In this document: piece after piece, positions 5,408-29,664 of the stretch
Layout of the letters: every line of letters begins with the position of its first letter
How positions within the stretch are numbered: position 1 is the first letter of the stretch
Assembly: GCA_000995135.1 (NCBI GenBank)
Contig: LBWY01000010.1
Location: forward strand, 10,382-74,381
DNA length: 64,000 nucleotides
Reading direction: 5' to 3'
Source of the DNA: Parcubacteria group bacterium GW2011_GWE2_39_37
GTDB lineage: Bacteria > Patescibacteriota > Patescibacteriia > Patescibacteriales > GWE2-39-37
Translations under genes and position numbers: made by a program
Notes under the pieces: model-generated
What the model was told of the DNA's origin: nothing
The model's input: only the letters and a program-made list of their open reading frames with translations
Database searches by the model: none

Positions 5408-6271
5408 TCAAGGGATGATCTGCCACTTATCGCCCTTACTAGACATCCTAATGGTGCCTTGCAGGTCATTGCGAAACACCGACACATTATTCCGCTCCAA
5501 TTTTTTTAATGTCCGCTTGCTTGGGTGGCCAAAAGAATTGTCTTTACCGACTTGAATAACTCCGAAACTTGGTTTTACCGCTCGTATGAACTCTTCACTG
5601 CTCGCAGTATCAGAGCCATGATGACCGATCTTTATCAATCCCGCCGATAAATCCTGGCCCCTGGCCATCATTCCCTCTTCAATTTCTGCCTCTGCATCCC
5701 CTACTAATAATGCGCTAACTTTTTTGTATTCAACTTTTGCGATTAATGAACTATTATTCAGATTTGTCACCGATTTCCCAACCAAACTTTCTTGAGGCGA
5801 AATATAAACCATTTTACAGTCAGGAGAAAAATAAATAGTCTGCGGTCGATCAATGATAGTTAGGACAACATTTCTTTTTTTTATCTGTTCGAGCCAAGCA
5901 AGATATGAAGGTGAGCTATGTACCACTCCCGTATAGAGGATTCTTTTGATCTGATAATGTTTGAGCACTTCGATCAAGCCCCCGACATGGTCGTCATGCG
6001 GATGAGTAAGCACCATTAAATCGATCTGCCGATCCCACCAAGGCAAATTCTCAGACAATCTTCTTAAAACAGAATTGTCCGGTCCCCCGTCGATCAAAAT
6101 ATTTTGGCCGGTTGGCGCTTTAATCAGAATACTATCCCCCTGCCCCACATCCAGGAAATCAATTTCCAAAAAATCTTTCTCTTTATAAAAAAAGCCGATC
6201 AAAATGGCGCTGATCACGACGACCAGGCAAGCAATAGCTAAAAAAATAATCTTTTGTTTATCACTCAACAT
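5408..6271 (-). CDS. ComEC-type metallo-beta-lactamase domain protein with N-terminal TM helix
   Basis: DVGQGDSILI, LTHPHDDHVGGL and GHHGS motifs typical of the ComEC C-terminal MBL domain. Confidence 0.8.
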   Translation of the reverse strand: MLSDKQKIIFLAIACLVVVISAILIGFFYKEKDFLEIDFLDVGQGDSILIKAPTGQNILIDGGPDNSVLRRLSENLPWWDRQIDLMVLTHPHDDHVGGLIEVLKHYQIKRILYTGVVHSSPSYLAWLEQIKKRNVVLTIIDRPQTIYFSPDCKMVYISPQESLVGKSVTNLNNSSLIAKVEYKKVSALLVGDAEAEIEEGMMARGQDLSAGLIKIGHHGSDTASSEEFIRAVKPSFGVIQVGKDNSFGHPSKRTLKKLERNNVSVFRNDLQGTIRMSSKGDKWQIIP

Positions 6272-6321: not shown

Positions 6322-6735
6322 ATGCGCATGGCAAAAAAAATTTTCCTAAGTTTACTGCTGTTTACCATTATTTTTGTCTTCTTCATCCTGTTTTCTGATA
6401 ATGCCAATGCCCAAGATCGATCTGATCAATTATTTTTCGGTGGACAAGAAGATGAGTTGCAGATTGCTACCGGCCTGGGTGACCGCGATCCAAGAATCAT
6501 CATTGCCCTTCTGATCAGAGTAGCCTTGGGATTTCTAGGCATTTTGGTTTTGATGATTATCTTGCTGGCCGGCTTTAAATGGATGACTGCTGGTGGGGAC
6601 GAAGAGCGATTGGCTGATGCACGAAAGACATTTTTTTCCGCAATTGTCGGGCTGATTATGATTCTGGCCGCTTTTGCCATTGCAGAATTCGTCATTCAAG
6701 CTATTTCTACCGCTACCGGCACAAGTCCTATTTAA
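6322..6735 (+). CDS. 137-aa secreted two-TM hairpin protein with VirB2/TrbC-pilin-like topology
   Basis: Signal peptide ending ANAQ, then DPRIIIALLIRVALGFLGI (TM1), WMTAGGDEERLADARK (loop) and AIVGLIMILAAFAIAEF (TM2). Paralogous to the N-termini of the 583-aa and 1885-aa proteins. Confidence 0.6.
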   Translation: MRMAKKIFLSLLLFTIIFVFFILFSDNANAQDRSDQLFFGGQEDELQIATGLGDRDPRIIIALLIRVALGFLGILVLMIILLAGFKWMTAGGDEERLADARKTFFSAIVGLIMILAAFAIAEFVIQAISTATGTSPI

Positions 6736-7390: not shown

Positions 7391-8926
7391 TCACAATCCC
7401 TTTTTTTGGCATTCCGCAGCTTTTCTAGTAGTTATTACCAGATAAATGAGAGCTAGATAATAAACTATCATAATCAACCAGCTCAGCCTTCCAGTTTCCC
7501 AACTAGCAAGACCTGGTCTTGCCATAATATTCACTACCCAAATCACATAGCTCAGAATAGCTTGGACCGGAGCGAATATAAACAAGGAAATAGATGGCAA
7601 CAAGAGGCTTATTCCCATGGCTAAAAAAGCTAAAATCATTATCGGTGCCAAGGTCCACAGAATAAGCAAATTACTTAAAGGAGAAATCAAAGCAATCTGT
7701 GAAAAATTCATTGCGATGATCGGAATTGTCGTTATCTGAGCAGCGACAGTTAGACTGACTAATTCCCGAACAAAAAGAAAATTTGGCATTTTCATTTTTT
7801 CCAGCCAACGAGTTGTCACTGGGTAACAATAGATGATGCCCAGGAGAGCTAAAAAACTTAACTGAAAACCTATGTCATCCCGTAGGATTTTCGGGTTTAT
7901 CAAAATCATTATTGCGGCTGAAAAGACCAACGAATTTTCCAGTTTGGACAGACGTCCTAGATAGGCTGCCCAAAGCACCAATGCACTCATTACCCCTGCC
8001 CTTACCGCAGAAACTGGCGCCCCGATCAAAACAATATAAAAGAAAATGATTATGACAGAAAAATAAAAAGCTTGCTTGCGCCACAGCCCAAAAAATAATA
8101 GCAACCAGAAAAGCCAAACTATTAACAAAGTGATATTCATTCCAGAAATGGCAACAATGTGGCTGAGACCGGTTTTGGCAAAATTTTCTCGCAGATCTGT
8201 TGGCAGTCCTTTTTGGTCGCCCAGAATCATGCCGCGAGTCAGTGAAGCTTCTGGTTCGACCAAGCCGTTGTTGATTACGGCTCGCAACTGGTTTTTTATC
8301 TGATAGATTTTGTTATAAAAAATATATGAGAAACTGGTGTCATCCGATTCCAATTTAAGCATCTGTGGAAAATAGCAGACTGAATAAATATCAAATCGAG
8401 CCAGATATCTATCATAGGCGAATTCTTCAAAATTTTTCGGTTTTTTCAGTTGACAATGAATCTTGACTACATCGCCATACTCAAACCCTGGATACAAGTT
8501 CGTGGTCACTAAAAGATTGCCATCAATTTCCTTTTTTGAATTATCAAGATATTTAGCTGTAACTACGTATTTGACTTGGTTTTCCCTTATGTCCGGCTCG
8601 GCTTTTATTACTCCCTCGAGTGTTACTTTCTGGTCATTGTAATGCCATATTTTATTATCTCCATCGATTGGTATAGATAAACTGTATCGCCAAAAGGCAA
8701 AAAACAAAATAGCCAAAAGGCAGAAAAGTAGAGACGCAAAATCTTGCGTCTCTACGAGATTATTCAGGGATAACAATGTAATAATTAGGCAACCGATCGC
8801 TAAGCCGAACCACCACAAATCATTTTTTATTACTTCGACCGGCAACAAGGAAGCAAAAAAAATTCCGACAATAAAAACTAAGTTCAAAAATATGAATATT
8901 TTTGATTTGGTTAAGACGATCTTCAT
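7391..8926 (-). CDS. comEC: ComEC/Rec2 DNA internalisation channel: DUF4131-like plus competence membrane domain, without MBL domain
   Basis: GLSHIVAISGMNITLL motif, polytopic membrane core and an N-terminal OB-like region between TM helices. Confidence 0.85.
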   Translation of the reverse strand: MKIVLTKSKIFIFLNLVFIVGIFFASLLPVEVIKNDLWWFGLAIGCLIITLLSLNNLVETQDFASLLFCLLAILFFAFWRYSLSIPIDGDNKIWHYNDQKVTLEGVIKAEPDIRENQVKYVVTAKYLDNSKKEIDGNLLVTTNLYPGFEYGDVVKIHCQLKKPKNFEEFAYDRYLARFDIYSVCYFPQMLKLESDDTSFSYIFYNKIYQIKNQLRAVINNGLVEPEASLTRGMILGDQKGLPTDLRENFAKTGLSHIVAISGMNITLLIVWLFWLLLFFGLWRKQAFYFSVIIIFFYIVLIGAPVSAVRAGVMSALVLWAAYLGRLSKLENSLVFSAAIMILINPKILRDDIGFQLSFLALLGIIYCYPVTTRWLEKMKMPNFLFVRELVSLTVAAQITTIPIIAMNFSQIALISPLSNLLILWTLAPIMILAFLAMGISLLLPSISLFIFAPVQAILSYVIWVVNIMARPGLASWETGRLSWLIMIVYYLALIYLVITTRKAAECQKKGL

Positions 8927-20502: not shown

Positions 20503-21501
20503 TTATTTGGCCTCTATCGTAAAACTATCTATGACTAGCTGAAAAATATTTGGGTAATTCAAGGTATTGTCTAGACCCAAATTGTAATTTATGGTGATTA
20601 TTTCTTTGCCGTCAGTAATCAAATAGATAGTGGTATTGTCATCATTTTTTATACCTTGCCAATCGCTCTGTCCCGATAGATTTTTATGATTAATAATCCT
20701 GCTTTCACTTAAGCTGGTCAGATTGAACTCCTGTTTATACCAATCTGCAATCGATTGCTGATTCTGATTCGGTTGGCTGTTGAATTGGATGATTTGGTTG
20801 TCCGGTGCCGTAAAGATGATCGAATCATCCATCTCCCTGACCGACCAATCGGCTGGACGTAAAAAAGAATAGCCAAATTTTTTACTGGCATATCTGCTTA
20901 CCGCCGTATTTGCATCCAGCTTGCCAGAGCCGGCAGGATTATAAAATTTTATAAATTCCTCGTAGTCAGCGTAACTGTCTCCATCGCTGTCGCTGCTATT
21001 TATATTTGTGCCTAACAATCGTTCTTCTGGATCGGTCAAGCCATCACTATCATTATCTTTGGCCAAAACAGAAAAGGTGGTAACCGTACTGCTTGCGATC
21101 GGCGTCTCTACTTGCCCAGTAGTAGTGGCTGAAGAAGTTGCGATAGTTGTTATGATGCTAGAAGTAGCAATTACGATTGAGGTGGTCGCTGTCTCGACTG
21201 TTTTTTCTTCTTCGATCTGCTTGGTTTCTTCAATTGGCTCTATCTTCGGCTCAGTTGAATATTCAAATAGATAATAATATAAACCGATCGAAGTTGCGGC
21301 CAAAAAAACAAAACCTGCGATCAAAATAATCATACCGGTTGCCTTGGCCTTGCCTGCATCATTCTTGAGGGTCCTGAAATGTTCCGGCATTACATGGACC
21401 ATTATTTCCCTTTCTACCTCTTGTTCTATGGCCTTTTTTTCATCGATTAATTTCTGATCTGTATTTATGATCGGTTCCTTTTTTTTGGAAAAGTTAAACA
21501 T
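20503..21501 (-). CDS. membrane-anchored protein with thrombospondin-type-3-like Ca-binding repeats and a C-terminal globular domain
   Basis: One TM helix, a T/S/I-rich linker, then DNDSDGLTDPEE and SSDSDGDSYADYEE repeats. Confidence 0.6.
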   Translation of the reverse strand: MFNFSKKKEPIINTDQKLIDEKKAIEQEVEREIMVHVMPEHFRTLKNDAGKAKATGMIILIAGFVFLAATSIGLYYYLFEYSTEPKIEPIEETKQIEEEKTVETATTSIVIATSSIITTIATSSATTTGQVETPIASSTVTTFSVLAKDNDSDGLTDPEERLLGTNINSSDSDGDSYADYEEFIKFYNPAGSGKLDANTAVSRYASKKFGYSFLRPADWSVREMDDSIIFTAPDNQIIQFNSQPNQNQQSIADWYKQEFNLTSLSESRIINHKNLSGQSDWQGIKNDDNTTIYLITDGKEIITINYNLGLDNTLNYPNIFQLVIDSFTIEAK

Positions 21502-21528
21502 AAGTATTGCACTGAATAAAAACTTTTA

Positions 21529-22203
21529 TTATTGGATTAGCTTGCCTGCCCCTAGCGGATTATAGCCATTTTTAACTTCATCCCCATCCTTATAGCTATC
21601 CCCGTCTGTATCATCTTTCAAAGGATTTGATTTATATATCTTTACCTCATCATTGTCCGTTAAGCCATCGCTGTCCGAATCAGGCAATAATGGATTTGTA
21701 GATAATAAAGCTTCTGATGTGTCGGTCAAACCATCTCCGTCAGTATCTTTTTCAACTTCAACGACAGGAATTGAAGTAGTTGCTACAACAGAAGAAGTCG
21801 CGGTCTCGGCCTGCAATACCGCTTCAAGAGAAGTGGTAGCAGGTTCCGGTGGGATAAAAGTGCTCGGCACCAGCTCTACTTTATTTTCTACGATGTTATT
21901 GACTGCTGGCGGAATTGCCTCGGCATTCTTCTTTTTATCAAAAAAAGCAGAAAAATTATTCAGCAAAAACCATGCACCAAAAGCTAAGACTAACAATGCC
22001 AAGACTATAGCTCCGATAATAAAATATTTTTTGTTTTCATTTCCAGGCACTAGACTTTCCAAGTTTTCAGCAGAAGCAGCTGGCTCTACCGGTTGGAAAG
22101 GAACGGGTTTAGGATTCGTCGGAATGGTATTTTTTTCAACCCCGGCAAAGATATCTTCGGTTTTGGTTTTCACTTCAGGAGAATTGTTTAAATCATCAAA
22201 CAT
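21529..22203 (-). CDS. membrane-anchored protein with three thrombospondin-type-3-like Ca-binding repeats
   Basis: TM helix, then DTDGDGLTDTSE, DSDSDGLTDNDE and DDTDGDSYKDGDE. Confidence 0.6.
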   Translation of the reverse strand: MFDDLNNSPEVKTKTEDIFAGVEKNTIPTNPKPVPFQPVEPAASAENLESLVPGNENKKYFIIGAIVLALLVLAFGAWFLLNNFSAFFDKKKNAEAIPPAVNNIVENKVELVPSTFIPPEPATTSLEAVLQAETATSSVVATTSIPVVEVEKDTDGDGLTDTSEALLSTNPLLPDSDSDGLTDNDEVKIYKSNPLKDDTDGDSYKDGDEVKNGYNPLGAGKLIQ

Positions 22204-22249: not shown

Positions 22250-25200
22250 TTAATTAGGAGTCGCATCAACAGTCGAAATAACGCTTTCGTTACCTGCTTG
22301 ATCAATTGCTGAGACTCCAAAATAATACTTTACACCATTGGTCAGGCTGGCGATAGTCAAGGTCTTGGCGCTATCCATGTCCTGCTTAGCGCCATAAATT
22401 CCCGCGGCTGTTCCATAATAGACTCTATATACATCCTTGGGATCACTATTCCCTGGATCCGGGCTCCAAGTTAAAGTAACTTGGGTAGAGGCAGTAATCG
22501 CACTTAAGTTAACCGGCTTGCCTGGAGGAGCTATGTCTTTAGGAGTTGCTGAAAGTTCATTTGAATATGCCGTTTCCAGCTTATTACTATACTGGCTTGG
22601 AGCAGTTTGTTCATTGAATAATCCGGTTACCACAAAATAGTATGTTTGACCATTGGTAAGTCCTGACACCAAAGTGCCATGAACCGCCGGGTCGGAAATT
22701 GTAATGGATTGAGTGTATTCTCCACTCTTGGTACCATAGTAAACCTTATAACCGCTGACATTGCCGGCAGTTGCCCAAGTTACATAAACTCTGGCGCCTT
22801 GATCCTGACTGCTAACATTTGTTAACGCTGGGATATTGCTTTCAGGATTTTTAGCTCTTAAAAAATAGAACTCTTTCAAGAGATTGTCATATTGTCCTCT
22901 GGTTACCGGCTGGGCACTGATAGCATCCAGCTGTTTGTTGGATTCGCCGCTGCCTGCCATATCACGGCAATAATAAAATTCGAAATTAAAACTATTACTA
23001 CAGCCATTTGCATTCTCGCCTTCCAATCCAGGACTGCAATTATTGGCAGAATCTTTCCATGGCCACTTAGTTGGGTCTCCGACTGAAGGCCAAGGATTGG
23101 CGCATAGAAAAACATGGATGGCTGCTTTAGCATTCTTGGTACTGTCTTTGGTAGAGGGGTTGTTGATAGTGTCGGTGGTTATTTTTGCCTCAGTTTTAAT
23201 GAAGGTTTTGCCGTCTTGTACATTTTGAGCAATAACCTTGGTAGAAGACCCTGTTAATGAATCTACTTTTGCAACGGCAACGTTGTCAGATGCCCAGTTC
23301 CAAGACCAGCTATAAGAGCTGATAGGGACGATTCTCTGACCTGATGATGTTTTTGCAAAAGCTAGAAATACCTTGTCGTTATCATCTACAGAATCATATG
23401 TAGGACTGGAAGGATTGTCGTCATTTACTGAAGCATTGCCCGTTTTATAATCGACGTTGTTTTCTGCTGTAAAAAAAGCATAGCTGTTAGGGTTGATCAC
23501 TACCGAATCCAACCTGCAAATTCCGTCATCAACTATTACTGAACCATTTTTTACAATCGGCTTTGTTGTGAATTTCCAAGCATAGCCTGCATAATTAACT
23601 CCATTAAAATTCTTATCAGTAATCGGATTTGGATTGTTTGCCATACCGATTCCATACAGACTCAAGACCCCTTCCGCCTTATCATCGCTCGCATTGGCAT
23701 CGCCTTTGATAATTACATAATGATCTTTGTTCTCGGCCAAAACTTGAGCAGGTGAAAAAGTTACCACGCTTCTACCTGCTTCATTATAACCTCCTACCGT
23801 ACCAGTAACGGCGCAAAAATTCTTGTTACCTACCGCATTGGCATTGCCGCCGAATAAATTCTTTACCCAATGCCAAACTTTTGCTAAAGCGCCTGTTTTC
23901 TCGTTTAATGTTAAATAGGTGGTTCCTGCCGGACACTGCTCCGTGCCATAATCACCCACCACGACAATATTACTGCTAAAACTGGCCAGATCCATAACTT
24001 GATCAAAAGTGGCAGAGATTAATGGATTGCGACAAATGCCGGTAGCTCCATTGGCCGGTTCGGTCGGTGGAACAACTGTCGGTCTGGCACGACAGCAAGT
24101 ATCGATACCGCAGCCTTCAGCAGTACCGCCATTACACTGGTTGTCGGCAGAACAACCGCAAAACAAACCGCGATTATCACCGCTGCATGGCGTTTTATTT
24201 TCAATACAAGTCAAAGTAAGCGTTGGGGTAACAACCTTGGTATCTCCTGGGGTACAACAGCAACGACAATCACTGCTTTGCGTCAAACAAGATAAACCAT
24301 TATTTACACCGCAACTGTCTGTCCCTTCAGTACAGACTGGCAGATTTTTACAGGACTGACCGGCTGCAGAATCGTTCGGGTCCACCTGGCAAGTACAGCT
24401 TTCTGTTTTACAGATCAAGCCAGTGCTGCATTTGTTATTATCTGGATCACACTGTTGAGTAGCGGTGTTAGAATCACAAGGGTCTCCAACATCACCTGGA
24501 GGATCAGGTGGTTCATTATTGTCTTCACACGTTCCCAAGCCGGCAGCCCCAGCAGTATTACAGGTTTTCAATGAGTGTCCGGAACAATTGCAAGCCGCAT
24601 CAGAAGCAGCCTGGTCAACTACACCGTTGATTTTCACCGTACAACCGGTGCATTGGCCAAAGCCAGTGTTGATGCCGTTCGGTCCGTCAGTAATGCTAGT
24701 ATCACTGCCGCAAGTTCCGGCACAAGATAAGCCGAGACAGCAATCCTGCGCTGATTTTTCAATCCTGCAACAGCATTCGCAAGAGGCAGCTTCTGAAACA
24801 CATTTGCCATTGGTGCAGGTAGAATCTTTCGGACAAATTTGCTGTTCCAATACGCAAGCACCTGCACTGCAACTAAGGCCGTTGGCGCAAGTTGAACATT
24901 CTTCCGGGTTACCCAATGCGCCTATAGTACAGAAGTTGTTCTGGTCTTTATATGAACCTAGCGGACATGATCCAGTAATCGGCAATTGCCAATAGTTCTT
25001 GTCGCCTACCTTATTACATTGTTGCACCACTCCAGAGACCGTGCGAGTGGTGTCACAAGTTGAGTTATTTAATTTACATTTATTGAAATTAGGGTCACTG
25101 GCACTGCTGACATAACTACAAAAGCCTCCAGCACAAGCCGGATTAAGTGTTCCGCAAACTGTCGCGTCACATTGTCCGACAACCTTATCGCTTGCAGTTT

Positions 25201-27907
25201 GGCATTGTCCAGGAGAGTTAGGGCAAGTTTCAACTTCTGCTATACAGGCATTTGCATTAGAATAACCGGCACAGGTCAAAGGTTTGACCGGATCCTTGGC
25301 AGTGGTAAAACTCCAACTAAAGACGCAACTATTAAAAAGATTACTGCCGCCACAGGCACCGGCAACACTCGCCGGATTACCGGCGTCCGCTACTACGCAC
25401 AAGCCATTTTTCTGCGTGTCACTGGCGCAACAAACTTCCGAAGTTTCACAGCCATTATTTGGCGCTGTATTACCTAAACAACTGCCAACGGTGAAAGGCA
25501 AGCTGTTGCTGGAAGTAGCATAACTATCTTTGAAGATCTTGAATGGTCCTGTTTCCGCCCCAACTGGCACCGTACTGGTTACGACCTGATCCGTCCAGGC
25601 GCTACTATTGCCATTTTTGTTATTAAAATATCGGGCACTGCCATTGCCTTGCTGGTTACCCAGATTTCCCCCCACTGCTGCCATCGATTGATTAACCGGG
25701 CCATTATGTGGCACCAAGGCACAGATTCCAGGTCCTGGCAATCCTGCAGTAACTTTGAAGTCTGCCTCATTGGAGCTTTTATTATCCCTATTGGTGACTT
25801 TGACTTGCCAGGTTTTTACACTAATATCTGGCACTTTCACGGTTATATAAGTGTCATGCCACCAGCTATCACGACATGCTTCCGGGAAATTGGTGTCGGC
25901 CAGAACTTGAGAATTTTCATCAATAAACTTAACTGTACTCGTGCTTGAATACTGTCCGAATCTTTTACCATAAATAGTGATATACTGCCCTTTCGGTCCT
26001 TGAGCAGGATCGATATAATCGATTACTGGATCTGTGGTCTGGTCAAGAACAATTTTGAAATCCAAGAAATTTGAAACTATGCTTCCTACACTAACAAAAA
26101 CTTTTGTCATACCACTGGCCAAATCCGGCACAAGTGCCTCAACCGAAGTATTGGTCCACGAGGAAACGACATTTGCTTTTTTCCCGTCATTCTCACTACC
26201 GAAAAATACGCCTTGCGCGCTGCCATCAAAAGCATTCCCCTGCAATACAAATTTATCTTTAAATTTACCTTGATCAGGATCTGCCAAACAAATGCCCGGA
26301 CGTACTAGAGTATTTACATCAAAATCGTTAATCAATACCCCTTGGCCATCATTAGTTGCATCCACCAAGCCGTCTTTTCGCACGACCTTGATCGGTCCAT
26401 CCATGCCACCATCGGGAACAACGATTACGATCTGATTATCTTTCCAAGAATTGATACATTGTGCATTGACTGTATCGGCAAGTGGTGCGATTTTGTCATC
26501 TCCTATCGTAGGGGCGCCCAGAAGTACGACTGATCCAGGTTCAGAACCGAAATTTTTACCACCGATAGTTACAAAATTATTCGGCGCTCCGTTAGGTGTG
26601 CTGCTTGCATCCATTGGACTGATCCAATCGATCAATGGCGAAGGAGAATCTTCAGCCAAGATCAAAAAGTTGAGCTCGTTTGAGCTTTCACCGTCCACTT
26701 TTACAAAAACATTATTTGGACCGGGTGATACGACTGGAATAGTCGCATTTACTGAAGTAGCTTCCCAATTATTGATATTGGTCGCTGCTACTGCGCCAGT
26801 CGAAGTACCGACCATCACAGTCCTTTCTGAAGTAGCGGAACCGAAACTGATACCTTGAAGATTGAAATTTATGCCGACCGGGCCTTGGGCAGGATCGACT
26901 AAACAGACACCGGGACGTATCTTTTCATTTACATCAAAATTATTGATTTGCGGTCCCCTGTTATCCGCCGAAGTATCCAATTGTCCATCGGATCTGGCTA
27001 CCTGTATAGGGCCATCAATACCTCCTTCAGGCACCACGACTATGATCTGATTATCTTGCCAAGATTTTACACATAAAGAATTAACCGTATTAGCCAATGG
27101 GGCGACTTTGTCATCGCCAGGGGCGGCAACATCTCCAAGAAAGGTAACGGTTCCAGGGTCCCAACCAAAAAATTGACCGGAGATAGTAATGAAATTGCCT
27201 TCCGCACCATTAGGTGTTCCGGCGCTATCCTTTGGAGTGATATTTTCAATAAGTGGCGCTCCCTGACAGGTACAACTGACCGGGTCACAGGTCAAAAAGG
27301 CGCTGCACAAAGCAGTGTCAGGCTGACATTGAGCAGTATTAATCTCGCCATCGCAAGGACTACCAAAAGTAGGAGTACAATGACAGGATGAATTGCAAAT
27401 TTCATTCGCCTTGCATTCACTGCTGTCTGGAACGCAAGCATTGCTACTGGAGCTGCAATATGATCCGCCACCGGATGGGAAATTTTCATAACCGCCGCCA
27501 CCGTTATTATTCGCTCCGGTCGAATCTAAGAGTTTGTCCATCACAAAAGTGGCGATTGCGAATGCAGAAAATATAATGATCAAGCCGATTGCCGCTGCGG
27601 TCAATATTTTTTTTGCTTTGCTGATCTGTTCCGTATTCCCGGACGCAGTCATCCAGATCCAGCCGGCATACATGATTAAAGCGATCGCGATAATAGCAAG
27701 AAAGCCCATGGCAACCCTGATGACATTTGCCACCACAATTCTTGGATCCGATTCCCCTAAGCCAAGCTCTTCGCCGATTACTGTTTTTTGACCGCCAAAA
27801 ACATCCACACCCTCACTTGTTTGTGCATTAGCAAAGCTGAACCAACCCGACATGACAAAGGCTAGGCAGAAAAATACGATTAATTTTTTGGATAAATTTA
27901 ACTTCAT
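22250..27907 (-). CDS. giant (1885 aa) surface protein: pilin-like two-TM module, Cys-rich modules, six IPT/TIG-like domains, Ig-like region, two Fn3 domains
   Basis: The N-terminus is paralogous to 6322-6735. It has repeated GxFITISGxxFG / IVVVPxGGxDGPI domains, a very Cys-dense segment (about aa 800-1240) and a C-terminal tandem of YxVYYGT...NGxxYYFxV Fn3 signatures. Confidence 0.85.
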   Translation of the reverse strand: MKLNLSKKLIVFFCLAFVMSGWFSFANAQTSEGVDVFGGQKTVIGEELGLGESDPRIVVANVIRVAMGFLAIIAIALIMYAGWIWMTASGNTEQISKAKKILTAAAIGLIIIFSAFAIATFVMDKLLDSTGANNNGGGGYENFPSGGGSYCSSSSNACVPDSSECKANEICNSSCHCTPTFGSPCDGEINTAQCQPDTALCSAFLTCDPVSCTCQGAPLIENITPKDSAGTPNGAEGNFITISGQFFGWDPGTVTFLGDVAAPGDDKVAPLANTVNSLCVKSWQDNQIIVVVPEGGIDGPIQVARSDGQLDTSADNRGPQINNFDVNEKIRPGVCLVDPAQGPVGINFNLQGISFGSATSERTVMVGTSTGAVAATNINNWEATSVNATIPVVSPGPNNVFVKVDGESSNELNFLILAEDSPSPLIDWISPMDASSTPNGAPNNFVTIGGKNFGSEPGSVVLLGAPTIGDDKIAPLADTVNAQCINSWKDNQIVIVVPDGGMDGPIKVVRKDGLVDATNDGQGVLINDFDVNTLVRPGICLADPDQGKFKDKFVLQGNAFDGSAQGVFFGSENDGKKANVVSSWTNTSVEALVPDLASGMTKVFVSVGSIVSNFLDFKIVLDQTTDPVIDYIDPAQGPKGQYITIYGKRFGQYSSTSTVKFIDENSQVLADTNFPEACRDSWWHDTYITVKVPDISVKTWQVKVTNRDNKSSNEADFKVTAGLPGPGICALVPHNGPVNQSMAAVGGNLGNQQGNGSARYFNNKNGNSSAWTDQVVTSTVPVGAETGPFKIFKDSYATSSNSLPFTVGSCLGNTAPNNGCETSEVCCASDTQKNGLCVVADAGNPASVAGACGGSNLFNSCVFSWSFTTAKDPVKPLTCAGYSNANACIAEVETCPNSPGQCQTASDKVVGQCDATVCGTLNPACAGGFCSYVSSASDPNFNKCKLNNSTCDTTRTVSGVVQQCNKVGDKNYWQLPITGSCPLGSYKDQNNFCTIGALGNPEECSTCANGLSCSAGACVLEQQICPKDSTCTNGKCVSEAASCECCCRIEKSAQDCCLGLSCAGTCGSDTSITDGPNGINTGFGQCTGCTVKINGVVDQAASDAACNCSGHSLKTCNTAGAAGLGTCEDNNEPPDPPGDVGDPCDSNTATQQCDPDNNKCSTGLICKTESCTCQVDPNDSAAGQSCKNLPVCTEGTDSCGVNNGLSCLTQSSDCRCCCTPGDTKVVTPTLTLTCIENKTPCSGDNRGLFCGCSADNQCNGGTAEGCGIDTCCRARPTVVPPTEPANGATGICRNPLISATFDQVMDLASFSSNIVVVGDYGTEQCPAGTTYLTLNEKTGALAKVWHWVKNLFGGNANAVGNKNFCAVTGTVGGYNEAGRSVVTFSPAQVLAENKDHYVIIKGDANASDDKAEGVLSLYGIGMANNPNPITDKNFNGVNYAGYAWKFTTKPIVKNGSVIVDDGICRLDSVVINPNSYAFFTAENNVDYKTGNASVNDDNPSSPTYDSVDDNDKVFLAFAKTSSGQRIVPISSYSWSWNWASDNVAVAKVDSLTGSSTKVIAQNVQDGKTFIKTEAKITTDTINNPSTKDSTKNAKAAIHVFLCANPWPSVGDPTKWPWKDSANNCSPGLEGENANGCSNSFNFEFYYCRDMAGSGESNKQLDAISAQPVTRGQYDNLLKEFYFLRAKNPESNIPALTNVSSQDQGARVYVTWATAGNVSGYKVYYGTKSGEYTQSITISDPAVHGTLVSGLTNGQTYYFVVTGLFNEQTAPSQYSNKLETAYSNELSATPKDIAPPGKPVNLSAITASTQVTLTWSPDPGNSDPKDVYRVYYGTAAGIYGAKQDMDSAKTLTIASLTNGVKYYFGVSAIDQAGNESVISTVDATPN

Positions 27908-27912
27908 TGTGT

Positions 27913-29664
27913 TTAGTTAGGAAGGGTGCAGCTTTCTGCTGGAGTAGCCACTCCTTGGCAACAAGAAGGATTTCCAGGATTGACAGCACAGCTCAATCCT
28001 CCACAAGGCTTGTAGCAGTTTTGATAGATATCTTTTATTTCTGATTTAAAATTAGGTGCATAACTATCATTTTCTTTAAATACATCATGCATCAGTCTTA
28101 CTGTGGTACTGCTAGTTCCATCCAAAGAAACAGAGTTAATGTTAGAAAGCCAATAATTAAAGTTCGGATCATTGGACTTGGTGAATAATTGGACGCTGCC
28201 TGTATCACCTTGTGCCAAGCTGCTATTCATCAGAGCGCGATCAAAGGAGGCTTCAGGAATATCATTCAAAGCCACGCCTTGAGTATTATAATCCGGTTTG
28301 ATCTGGCTGATTGTCGGAGGTGAGATAAGAATCTTATCCGAAGTATTGAAAGTCCAAGTATAATCATCACCTTGGGTAGCCGGATCCGGTTGGTTTACAT
28401 TGTATGGCGGCAGGCCGGTAGCAGAACCTGGTCCTTGCGCGACGCCATTTTTATTACCATCAAAAGAATTGTCAGCCATGTCAACAACACCATTATATGG
28501 AAACAGCGGCGTGGTTGAGGCTGCCCTGATAAATGTGTTTATAACTTTTAGAGCAGGCAAACAATAAATGGTGTTGCCGCAAGAATTGGTACCGCAAGCA
28601 TCATCCGTCAAAAATTCCACTGTTTTGTATTGATTAGTGATGTAAAAATTGCCGATAATTTTTGCTCCACCAGTTGAAACTATCAGGTTATCGGTAGTTG
28701 AGGCTTCACCGCTGGCGGAGGTAGGATCTACAGCCTCGCTAAAATTGATCTGGATGACTACGTTCCTCGGCTGGATAGAAGAAGCCATAGGTATGATGCT
28801 TTCAACGTTAGGAGGAGTCAGATCCAGGAAAGTGCTGACCTCAAAATTCCAGGTATAGGCGATCTCACCAGCAAAACTGCCAAAAGCGCTCTTGCCGTTA
28901 TCTTCCCTAGTTATACCGGGCTTCAAAGCCACAGAATACCAGATCTTTTCCGAAGGACTGCCTAAATATTTGACCGGTTTGAAGACAAAAGTCTTGTGGT
29001 CTGCAGAAACATTAGCAATAACATCTGTCTCTTTTCTCGCTACGCCCGCTACTGTGGGATAAATTACTATATTATCTGTTATTTTGCCGTTAGCATTAAT
29101 TATGGATGCAGGGGTAATCGCTTCTCTGAAAGTGACTACTATCTTGGTATTGCGCGGAATCTCTATAGCATCACGTGCAGGATAATGAGATTGGATAATG
29201 CCGTTGCCAAGCGCAGCTATGCCGTAACCTCCGCTTCCGTCAGGACCGCCTCCCCCGCCGGGGCCGCTGGGTCCGCCCATCAGTTTATTGAATATGAAAG
29301 TTGCAATCGCCCATGAAGATAAAATTATTAACAACCCGATTATAGCATTTTTCAAGATTTTTTTGGCTTCATCAATTTTTTCCGGATTGCCTTCAGAAGA
29401 CATCCACAACCAACCGGCATAAATTGTCAAACCAACTGCGATGATACCCAAAAAGCCGAAAGCGACATTGATTACTCTAGCCACGATGATCCGCGGATCT
29501 TCTGCACTCAAACCGATATTGTTTTCAATCTCTGTTTTTTTCCCACCGAAAGGATCGACTGCTGCAGATTGCGCCAATGCAAAATTAGACAATAAAAAAA
29601 TAGCGCTTGCAACTACAATAATAAAGGCGACTATCTTTAATTTGAATCTATTAGTTTTGTACAT
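27913..29664 (-). CDS. 583-aa surface protein: pilin-like two-TM module, Gly-rich linker, Ig-like (SbsA-type) domains, Cys-rich C-terminus
   Basis: The N-terminus is paralogous to 6322-6735 and to the giant protein. GGPSGPGGGGGPDGSGG linker. C-terminus CYKPCGGLSCAVNPGNPSCCQG. The next gene starts 5 nt downstream. Confidence 0.8.
   Translation of the reverse strand: MYKTNRFKLKIVAFIIVVASAIFLLSNFALAQSAAVDPFGGKKTEIENNIGLSAEDPRIIVARVINVAFGFLGIIAVGLTIYAGWLWMSSEGNPEKIDEAKKILKNAIIGLLIILSSWAIATFIFNKLMGGPSGPGGGGGPDGSGGYGIAALGNGIIQSHYPARDAIEIPRNTKIVVTFREAITPASIINANGKITDNIVIYPTVAGVARKETDVIANVSADHKTFVFKPVKYLGSPSEKIWYSVALKPGITREDNGKSAFGSFAGEIAYTWNFEVSTFLDLTPPNVESIIPMASSIQPRNVVIQINFSEAVDPTSASGEASTTDNLIVSTGGAKIIGNFYITNQYKTVEFLTDDACGTNSCGNTIYCLPALKVINTFIRAASTTPLFPYNGVVDMADNSFDGNKNGVAQGPGSATGLPPYNVNQPDPATQGDDYTWTFNTSDKILISPPTISQIKPDYNTQGVALNDIPEASFDRALMNSSLAQGDTGSVQLFTKSNDPNFNYWLSNINSVSLDGTSSTTVRLMHDVFKENDSYAPNFKSEIKDIYQNCYKPCGGLSCAVNPGNPSCCQGVATPAESCTLPN

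Follow-up and report, generated by a model that had tools for sequence, protein, structure and literature searches.

Three genes and their shared N-terminal module

The DNA analysed here, a 64,000-nucleotide stretch of contig LBWY01000010.1 from Parcubacteria group bacterium GW2011_GWE2_39_37 (hereafter the window), encodes three proteins that start with the same membrane module: one stand-alone protein of 137 aa and two fusion proteins of 583 and 1885 aa, in which the module is followed by a large ectodomain. Their open reading frames (ORFs) are present at 6322-6735 on the forward strand (137 aa) and at 27913-29664 and 22250-27907 on the reverse strand (583 and 1885 aa, respectively). Sharing of an N-terminal module by the three proteins, as proposed in an initial annotation, was borne out. 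BLASTP of the first 137 residues, with composition correction, gave E = 1e-26 between the 137- and 583-aa proteins, 6e-33 between the 137- and 1885-aa proteins, and 1e-40 between the two fusions, with 44-51% identity in the local alignments. The similarity also held in a three-way alignment, where the first ~130 residues of the 583- and 1885-aa proteins were 36-41% identical to the 137-aa protein; the shared part is accordingly longer than the approximately 110 residues first estimated. A profile built from the three sequences found exactly three copies of the module and no further ones in the six-frame translation of the window, the next best match having an E-value of 0.2.

In the stand-alone gene (6322-6735, forward strand), the signal peptide covers aa 1-30 (6322-6411) by hydropathy and ends at the cleavage motif ANA↓Q. 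It is followed by a variable exposed N-segment carrying FGGQ...GLGDRDPR, by helix 1 at aa 56-89 (6487-6588; AlphaFold2 and hydropathy), by the conserved loop region TAGGDEERLADARK at aa 89-102 (6586-6627), and by helix 2, which extends up to aa 132 (6717) and leaves a short tail. The AlphaFold2 model of this protein, calculated from a 34-sequence alignment, is a helical hairpin of residues 57-89 and 94-132 with a predicted local distance difference test score (pLDDT) above 90. Kyte-Doolittle hydropathy found three hydrophobic stretches in each of the three proteins, corresponding to the signal peptide and the two helices, and the cleavage motifs were ANA↓Q, ALA↓Q, and ANA↓Q, in agreement with the proposed topology of a signal peptide ending in A-x-A-Q and two transmembrane helices. 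The motifs FGG(Q/K), DPRI(I/V), AG(F/W)xWM, A(R/K)K, and (F/W)AIAxF were recovered in all three modules as initially listed, while the motif given there as A(I/V)GL proved to be A-x-(I/V)-G-L. Residues invariant across the three modules include polar ones, namely D56-P57-R58, W87-M88, G92, A100, and K102.

Forty homologues of the 137-aa protein were retrieved, all of them assigned to PF18895 and several carrying the NCBI name "pilin". Identical proteins occur on LBXO01000071.1 (GCA_000995525.1) and on a 92-kb groundwater scaffold.

Family assignment

The Pfam profile PF18895 (T4SS_pilin, after the type IV secretion system, T4SS) scored 29.6 and 33.1 bits against the 137- and 583-aa proteins, both above the gathering score of 26.6 bits, and 22.5 bits, below that score, against the 1885-aa protein. 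It matched 34 of the 34 relatives and modules tested, with a best E-value of 1.9e-12. The NCBIfam profile NF045849 (Mbov_0395 family pilin-like conjugal transfer protein) scored 28.1, 36.8, and 30.2 bits against the 137-, 583-, and 1885-aa proteins (E = 1.2e-6, 2.2e-9, and 2.6e-7, respectively), with matches that span model positions ~15-80 of 80 in all three modules. Since these scores are below the equivalog cut-off of 40 bits, the modules are homologous to the family and are not equivalogs of it. The gathering score of PF04956 (TrbC/VirB2), 27.9 bits, was not reached by the 137-aa protein (16.7 bits, E = 0.0086), neither fusion gave a match, and weak matches were found in 11 of the 34 relatives (best E = 4e-4). 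The label of VirB2/TrbC-like T4SS pilin given in the initial annotation is therefore retained with respect to the T4SS pilin family, through two proteins above the PF18895 gathering score, and given up with respect to PF04956.

By profile, the module is a putative pilin hairpin of the conjugative T4SS type (PF18895), and by curated score it is not a member of PF04956. Alignment and profile scores identify the three proteins as paralogous PF18895 members. The 137-aa protein is, on the same grounds, a predicted canonical small pilin and an ordinary member of the family, whose small stand-alone size (~100-160 aa) it fits; the 583- and 1885-aa proteins exceed this size through their C-terminal ectodomains. 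Identity as a type IV pilin (T4P) was considered and rejected, as the proteins have no class III signal peptide and no G-F-T-L-I-E-type motif, and carry an A-x-A↓Q site and two helices instead.

Architecture of the two fusion proteins

The module of the 583-aa protein, consisting of a signal peptide ending in ALA↓Q and the helical hairpin, covers aa 1-129 (29278-29664, reverse strand). A Gly/Pro-rich flexible linker, GGPSGPGGGGGPDGSGG..., follows at aa 130-152 (29209-29277, reverse strand; pLDDT ~30), and the remainder, aa 153-583 (27916-29208, reverse strand), is an ectodomain predicted as a string of immunoglobulin (Ig)-like Big_5 beta-sandwich domains with conserved Cys residues and a DxNxxDG-type loop. 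Pfam placed Big_5 in three stretches of the protein (E = 5.8e-16). The AlphaFold2 model, calculated from a 41-sequence alignment, had a mean pLDDT of 80; the hairpin was formed by residues 57-88 and 94-129 (pLDDT >90), linker 130-152 was disordered, and the ectodomain was modelled confidently as beta-rich with pLDDT mostly >90. The best Foldseek matches of this ectodomain were the S-layer protein SbsC (4uic and 4uj6, E = 6.7e-10 and 4e-9), followed by Sap of Bacillus anthracis (E = 3.6e-4) and then by generic Ig-domain chains.

The module of the 1885-aa protein covers aa 1-133 (27509-27907, reverse strand), and its giant ectodomain covers aa 134-1885 (22253-27508, reverse strand), with a Gly linker, Cys-rich stretches, and TIG/IPT, Big_5, and fn3 domains. 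Pfam found TIG at E = 8e-18 (about five domains or stretches), fn3 at E = 5e-12 (two, C-terminal), and Big_5 at E = 1.7e-6. The proposed fusion to very large C-terminal ectodomains was thus confirmed, with Big_5, TIG, fn3, and Cys-rich domains as the domain types. Big_5, TIG, and fn3 belong to the extracytoplasmic domain types, so that the hairpin would have its two ends outside the cell and its loop inside. The gene of the 1885-aa protein starts 5 nt past the stop of the 583-aa gene, and the two genes are probably co-transcribed given this short gap.

In four related loci, proteins of 390-452 aa encoded within or just upstream of pilin arrays (L071 4356-5609, L072 8096-9268, L086 6796-8154, and L091 3398-4669; ORF starts assigned mechanically as the first start codon) carry a signal peptide, a Cys-rich domain of ~300 aa, and then a C-terminal pilin hairpin. 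The position of the Cys-rich domain upstream of the hairpin in these proteins indicates that cargo is tolerated at either external end of the hairpin.

Distribution and synteny of the fusions

More than 1000 full-length homologues were found for the 583-aa protein. The best 120 of them were 507-621 aa long and 44-89% identical over almost the full length, and nearly all were annotated with both PF13205 and PF18895. In an exhaustive search with the module profile, 49,177 clusters built at 50% identity reached E <= 1e-3, and 13,088 of them reached E <= 1e-10. Among the best 150 cluster representatives, a list skewed towards relatives of the query, 78 consisted of an N-terminal module plus a tail with an overall length of 445-3616 aa, 25 were stand-alone (<= 200 aa), 13 were intermediate, and 34 contained from two to ten or more tandem hairpins. 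Judged from these homologues, the fusions are ancient and common, neither rare nor recent.

The 34 poly-hairpin proteins ("poly-pilins") have a single N-terminal signal peptide and linkers of ~20-40 aa between hairpins. Examples are P0165 (239 aa, 2 hairpins), P0163 (552 aa, 6 hairpins), P0170 (1147 aa, at least 10 hairpins), and P0176 (1775 aa, 17 stretches).

The order of a mid-size fusion, a giant fusion, and one or more membrane proteins with thrombospondin type-3 (TSP3) repeats is kept in three relatives (L010, L095, and L096), where the first gene encodes 571-937 aa and the second 1632-3616 aa. The cassette sits after hisS in the relatives, in L010 and L096 also after yqeY and relA, and in L010 it continues into ybeY-dgkA-ftsA-ftsZ. 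In the window, the gene downstream of the giant fusion (21529-22203, reverse strand) encodes a single-pass membrane protein whose Ca-binding repeats are of the bacterial thrombospondin type-3 kind (TSP3_bac E = 7e-12; matched in L010 by tblastn), and a TSP3 gene occupies this position also in L010 and L096. It is followed by a second co-conserved membrane or surface protein of 332 aa with DSDGD-type motifs (20503-21501, reverse strand), which had no Pfam match and has a 34%-identical positional orthologue in L010; the next genes are ybeY-dgkA-ftsA-ftsZ. In all three cases listed (window 20503-22203, L010 16949-18632, and L096 16073-18184), the giant fusion is always followed by two single-pass membrane proteins, with Thr/Ser-rich spacers, TSP3 repeats, and weak matches to the Myxococcus cohesion/gliding proteins MtsD and CglD. 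They and the fusions may form a joint surface complex.

Conservation of the hairpin

Column identities were compared between segments, with the signal peptide serving as an internal control for a segment that needs hydrophobicity alone. Across 41 orthologues of the 583-aa protein, column identity was 0.68 in helix 1, 0.64 in the loop, and 0.60 in helix 2, compared with 0.33 in the signal peptide, 0.36 in the linker, and 0.55 in the ectodomain. The hairpin is thus about twice as conserved as the signal peptide and is the most conserved part of this fusion family. The stand-alone family showed the same pattern, with 0.66, 0.63, and 0.56 in helix 1, loop, and helix 2, and 0.32 in the signal peptide. 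Six residues, G84, M88, G92, A100, G110, and L111, were invariant in both the fused and the stand-alone sets. Fused and stand-alone modules were also intermixed, with a mean identity of 0.42 between the classes and 0.48 within them, and the nearest module was a stand-alone pilin for 13 of the 78 fused modules.

The conservation pattern, the invariant residues common to free pilins, and the intermixing of modules together argue that the hairpin is more than a passive anchor. As such a pattern would be unexpected for a passive anchor, a hairpin that still makes pilin-type contacts is favoured.

T4SS genes and chromosomal setting

The window is ordinary chromosome, with nrdD/nrdR, topA, pheT, an AddA-like helicase gene, lytR, der, hisS, ftsA, ftsZ, prfA, htrA, ybeY, and dgkA. 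VirB4, VirD4, and VirB6 were absent, as the initial annotation had stated, from the 20 largest or neighbouring ORFs of the window that were scanned with Pfam, a scan that did not cover the smaller ORFs. For the genome this absence does not hold. GCA_000995525.1 is listed as Candidatus Falkowbacteria bacterium GW2011_GWF2_39_8, class ABY1, with 0.99 Mb (Table S1, PMC12102498), and its T4SS genes comprise VirB4 (KKR32307.1), TrsD (KKR32308.1), and a coupling protein (T4CP; KKR32450.1) (Table S3, PMC12102498). From these rows it follows that a T4SS is present in the genome but outside the window. The same table holds one VirB2 row for the assembly, KKR31291.1, assigned through the G_tfc9 profile (PMC12102498). 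Two of the three window proteins exceed the PF18895 gathering score although Table S3 lists one VirB2-like protein; fused or divergent pilins may be under-counted in this census.

Across the Candidate Phyla Radiation (CPR), 1,948 assemblies have been reported to encode VirB2-like pilins (PF04956/PF18895), which form 441 arrays of 2-11 genes; a VirB2-like gene was located near virB4 in 1,135 of the 1,948 assemblies (PMC12102498). This main survey of CPR T4SS detected no adhesins and treated VirB2-like proteins as small (PMC12102498). PF18895 is furthermore the most abundant domain in freshwater-specific structure clusters. In enrichment cultures, genes with the T4SS pilin domain rank among the unknown genes that Patescibacteria express most strongly (PMC10936435).

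Relatives of the 137-aa pilin at 37-50% identity form same-strand tandem arrays of 5-13 pilin genes, found at loci L012-L093 (e.g., L012 1864-10674 and L014 9506-13810). In genomes of the ABY1/Falkowbacteria type, these arrays often adjoin dnaA, dnaN, and a class A penicillin-binding protein (PBP) gene near the replication origin. Within 10 kb of the related arrays, the ten neighbour families that recurred most often were GT2, a solute-binding protein, PBP1, DnaN, a nucleotidyl transferase, DnaA, trigger factor, H+-PPase, and two unknowns; VirB4 was absent from these ten, rarer neighbours not having been scanned.

Interpretation and competing explanations

The proteins are best explained as modular VirB2-like pilins whose hairpin is functionally engaged with pilin assemblies and which tether or display S-layer-like or adhesin domains, an explanation to which we give about even credence. 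As read from the sequences, the proteins would be exported by the Sec pathway and then cut by signal peptidase I after A-x-A. The two helices would enter the membrane as a hairpin whose short conserved loop faces the cytoplasm and whose ends both lie outside, and the flexible Gly-rich linker would hold the large ectodomain, made of Ig-like, TIG, Cys-rich, or fn3 parts, outside the cell. The hairpin would most likely keep pilin-type contacts with other PF18895 hairpins in the membrane pool, possibly within a filament built by the VirB4/TrsD machinery of the genome. This would either keep the S-layer-like or adhesin domains tied to the membrane or present them on a pilin assembly or at its end.

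Several observations weigh against this explanation. No solved conjugative pilin (TraA, VirB2, or TrhA) was found at E <= 10 when a family-alignment profile was searched against PDB sequences. Foldseek of the hairpin model against the PDB gave nothing at E <= 0.001, and the matches obtained were non-specific helical hairpins (ion-channel helices, CnrX, and ATP synthase subunit c); a two-helix hairpin is too simple for these searches to discriminate in either direction. Table S3 of the CPR survey has no PF18895 row for GCA_000995525.1, and none of the three window proteins is listed there under PF18895 (PMC12102498). A T4SS pilus of Patescibacteria is discussed as a possibility, and none has yet been demonstrated (PMC12857230). 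The fusion genes sit among housekeeping genes (relA ... ybeY, dgkA, ftsA, ftsZ) with no T4SS gene nearby. The best structural matches of the 583-aa ectodomain are S-layer proteins, and the well-conserved 583-aa family looks like a core envelope protein and not like a fast-evolving host adhesin. Presumably, a VirB2-type helical filament would leave no room for 450-1750 aa of ectodomain on each subunit, so that at most a sparse or terminal incorporation of the fusions is conceivable.

Part of these points leads to a T4SS-independent anchor as a less probable, tentative alternative. The hairpin would here have been co-opted as a double-pass anchor for core envelope or S-layer-like proteins that work with the TSP3 proteins, without contact to any pilin or T4SS. 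The housekeeping context by cell-division genes and the conserved four-gene surface cassette fit this, as do the closeness of the ectodomain to SbsC and Sap, the high conservation of the 583-aa family, and the lack of T4SS genes among the 20 window ORFs scanned. However, a single transmembrane helix would suffice for an anchor, and it is the hairpin with its cytoplasmic loop that is most conserved, at twice the level of the signal peptide and with the invariant residues of free pilins. The phylogenetic intermixing of fused and free modules likewise speaks for modular pilins and against an independent anchor.

A family-wide scaffold, for which both free and fused PF18895 hairpins would assemble by themselves into rings or sheets in or on the membrane and "T4SS pilin" would reflect distant ancestry only, is considered improbable. 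Arrays of the ABY1/Falkowbacteria type next to dnaA, dnaN, and PBP genes, with VirB4 not among their ten most recurrent neighbours, are in line with such a scaffold, as are the polyproteins with 2-10 or more tandem hairpins, the huge family size of 49,177 clusters, and the fact that no pilus has been demonstrated (PMC12857230). It is disfavoured by the location of a VirB2-like gene near virB4 in 1,135 of 1,948 CPR assemblies (PMC12102498), by the profile similarity of the module to proteins of conjugative elements, and by Southlakia epibionticum, a cultivated Saccharibacterium in which the pilin array lies inside an essential T4SS locus (PMC10633639; PMC12857230).

Similarity arising by chance from low-complexity hydrophobic sequence or from mis-called ORFs can be dismissed as very improbable: transmembrane segments can mimic similarity and the 1885-aa protein is under the Pfam gathering score, but BLASTP E-values of 1e-26 to 1e-40, hundreds of full-length orthologues, conserved polar motifs (DPR, WMT.GG, and A(K/R)K), and identical proteins on independent assemblies indicate that the similarity is real and the ORFs are no artefact.

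A broader form of the modular pilin explanation is more speculative and, taken as a whole, unlikely. The VirB2-like hairpin would be a general "plug-in", by which giant adhesin or S-layer-like ectodomains are fed together with small pilins into a filament or surface assembly that the T4SS builds on a monoderm cell, and these modular pilins would constitute the missing host-contact adhesins of the essential Patescibacteria T4SS. If true, the "modular pilin" principle of type IV pili would have arisen a second time and independently.

The PF18895 family, hugely expanded in Patescibacteria/CPR, has already been described, and three copies of its module are not new in themselves. Architectures that join the module to large ectodomains are widespread, and no prior description of them was found in the literature searched, most subscription journals lying outside its coverage. 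The sole Patescibacterium tested genetically cannot live epibiotically without its T4SS and VirB2-like pilin arrays (PMC10633639; PMC12857230), and the fusion ectodomains (Ig-like, TIG, laminin-G, and fn3) are candidates for surface-contact parts of Patescibacteria T4SS. Alternatively, the fusions would give ultrasmall bacteria a new type of anchor for envelope proteins. If the hairpin is only an anchor, the fusions would extend the known range of protein architectures only modestly.

Comparison with known systems

In F- and T-pilus pilins both termini are outside, so that a C-terminal extension would point outward. TrbC/VirB2/TraA pilins of diderm T4SS (PF04956; F, T, and RP4 pili) resemble the window proteins in their Sec signal peptide, their pair of hydrophobic helices, and the short basic loop. 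They differ in that the host of the window is a monoderm, the module is below the PF04956 gathering score, and no match to solved pilins was obtained. To our knowledge, no natural fusions to large domains occur in the TrbC/VirB2/TraA family.

Family, signal peptide plus helical hairpin, and phylum are shared with the VirB2-like pilins of Patescibacteria (PF18895; PMC10633639, PMC12102498). Compared with these, two window proteins add ectodomains of 450 and 1750 aa after the hairpin, the stand-alone copy is solitary instead of lying in an array, and no copy in the window is near virB4. The Mbov_0395 family (NF045849) of Mycoplasma integrative and conjugative elements (ICEs) is connected to the window proteins by the significant NF045849 profile matches of all three modules. 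For the PrgF-type small proteins of monoderm conjugative elements, profile matches coincide with PF18895 in the CPR survey (PMC12102498). Unlike the members of these groups, the window genes are chromosomal core and not ICE-borne, and two of them are fused to large ectodomains.

Modular type IV pilins (e.g., Streptococcus sanguinis PilB and PilC; PMC8179133, PMC9934059) share the design, by analogy only: a large functional or adhesive module is fused to a pilin polymerisation module and presented on a filament in which small pilins predominate. They belong to an unrelated class, in which a prepilin peptidase cuts a class III signal peptide and there is only one N-terminal helix, whereas in the window proteins the cleavage sites are of the type I A-x-A kind and two helices form a hairpin.

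The Ig-domain S-layer proteins of Bacillota (Geobacillus SbsC and Bacillus anthracis Sap) are similar to the predicted 583-aa ectodomain in forming an Ig-like chain in the models. Sequence identity to them is, however, ~10%, and whole-chain TM-scores are low, at 0.14-0.17. S-layer proteins of the SbsC/Sap type attach via SLH or cell-wall-polymer-binding domains, whereas the 583-aa protein would attach via its membrane hairpin.

Neighbourhood of the stand-alone pilin and further observations

The stand-alone gene lies between the two halves of a split comEC, as initially annotated. The N-terminal half (7391-8926, reverse strand; DUF4131 and Competence channel domain) covers positions 76-405 of TIGR00361 (ComEC_Rec2), and the C-terminal half (5408-6271, reverse strand; a membrane helix and a metallo-beta-lactamase nuclease domain, Lactamase_B) covers positions 420-663 (E = 7.6e-39). 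Three small genes separate the halves; one is the pilin gene, on the opposite strand, and the other two encode unannotated membrane proteins (130 and 80 aa). The 3' end of the pilin gene overlaps the convergent 130-aa gene by 8 nt. The same layout occurs in an 85%-identical relative (L094), minus the call of the 80-aa gene. By tblastn, no ComEC half was found in 80 related loci from other species, and none was present in three contexts inspected individually. A conserved functional link between pilin and comEC, by analogy to ComB of Helicobacter, was rejected, as the layout was found only in the 85%-identical relative and the homologues at 37-50% identity sit in arrays elsewhere. In view of its absence around the more distant homologues, the comEC adjacency is treated as incidental.

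Contigs of metagenome-assembled genomes with typical Patescibacteria pilin arrays are in many cases titled "uncultured Gammaproteobacteria bacterium" (L018-L022, L026-L028, L031, L032, and many others). These titles, from binchicken and SRP co-assemblies, look like mislabels.

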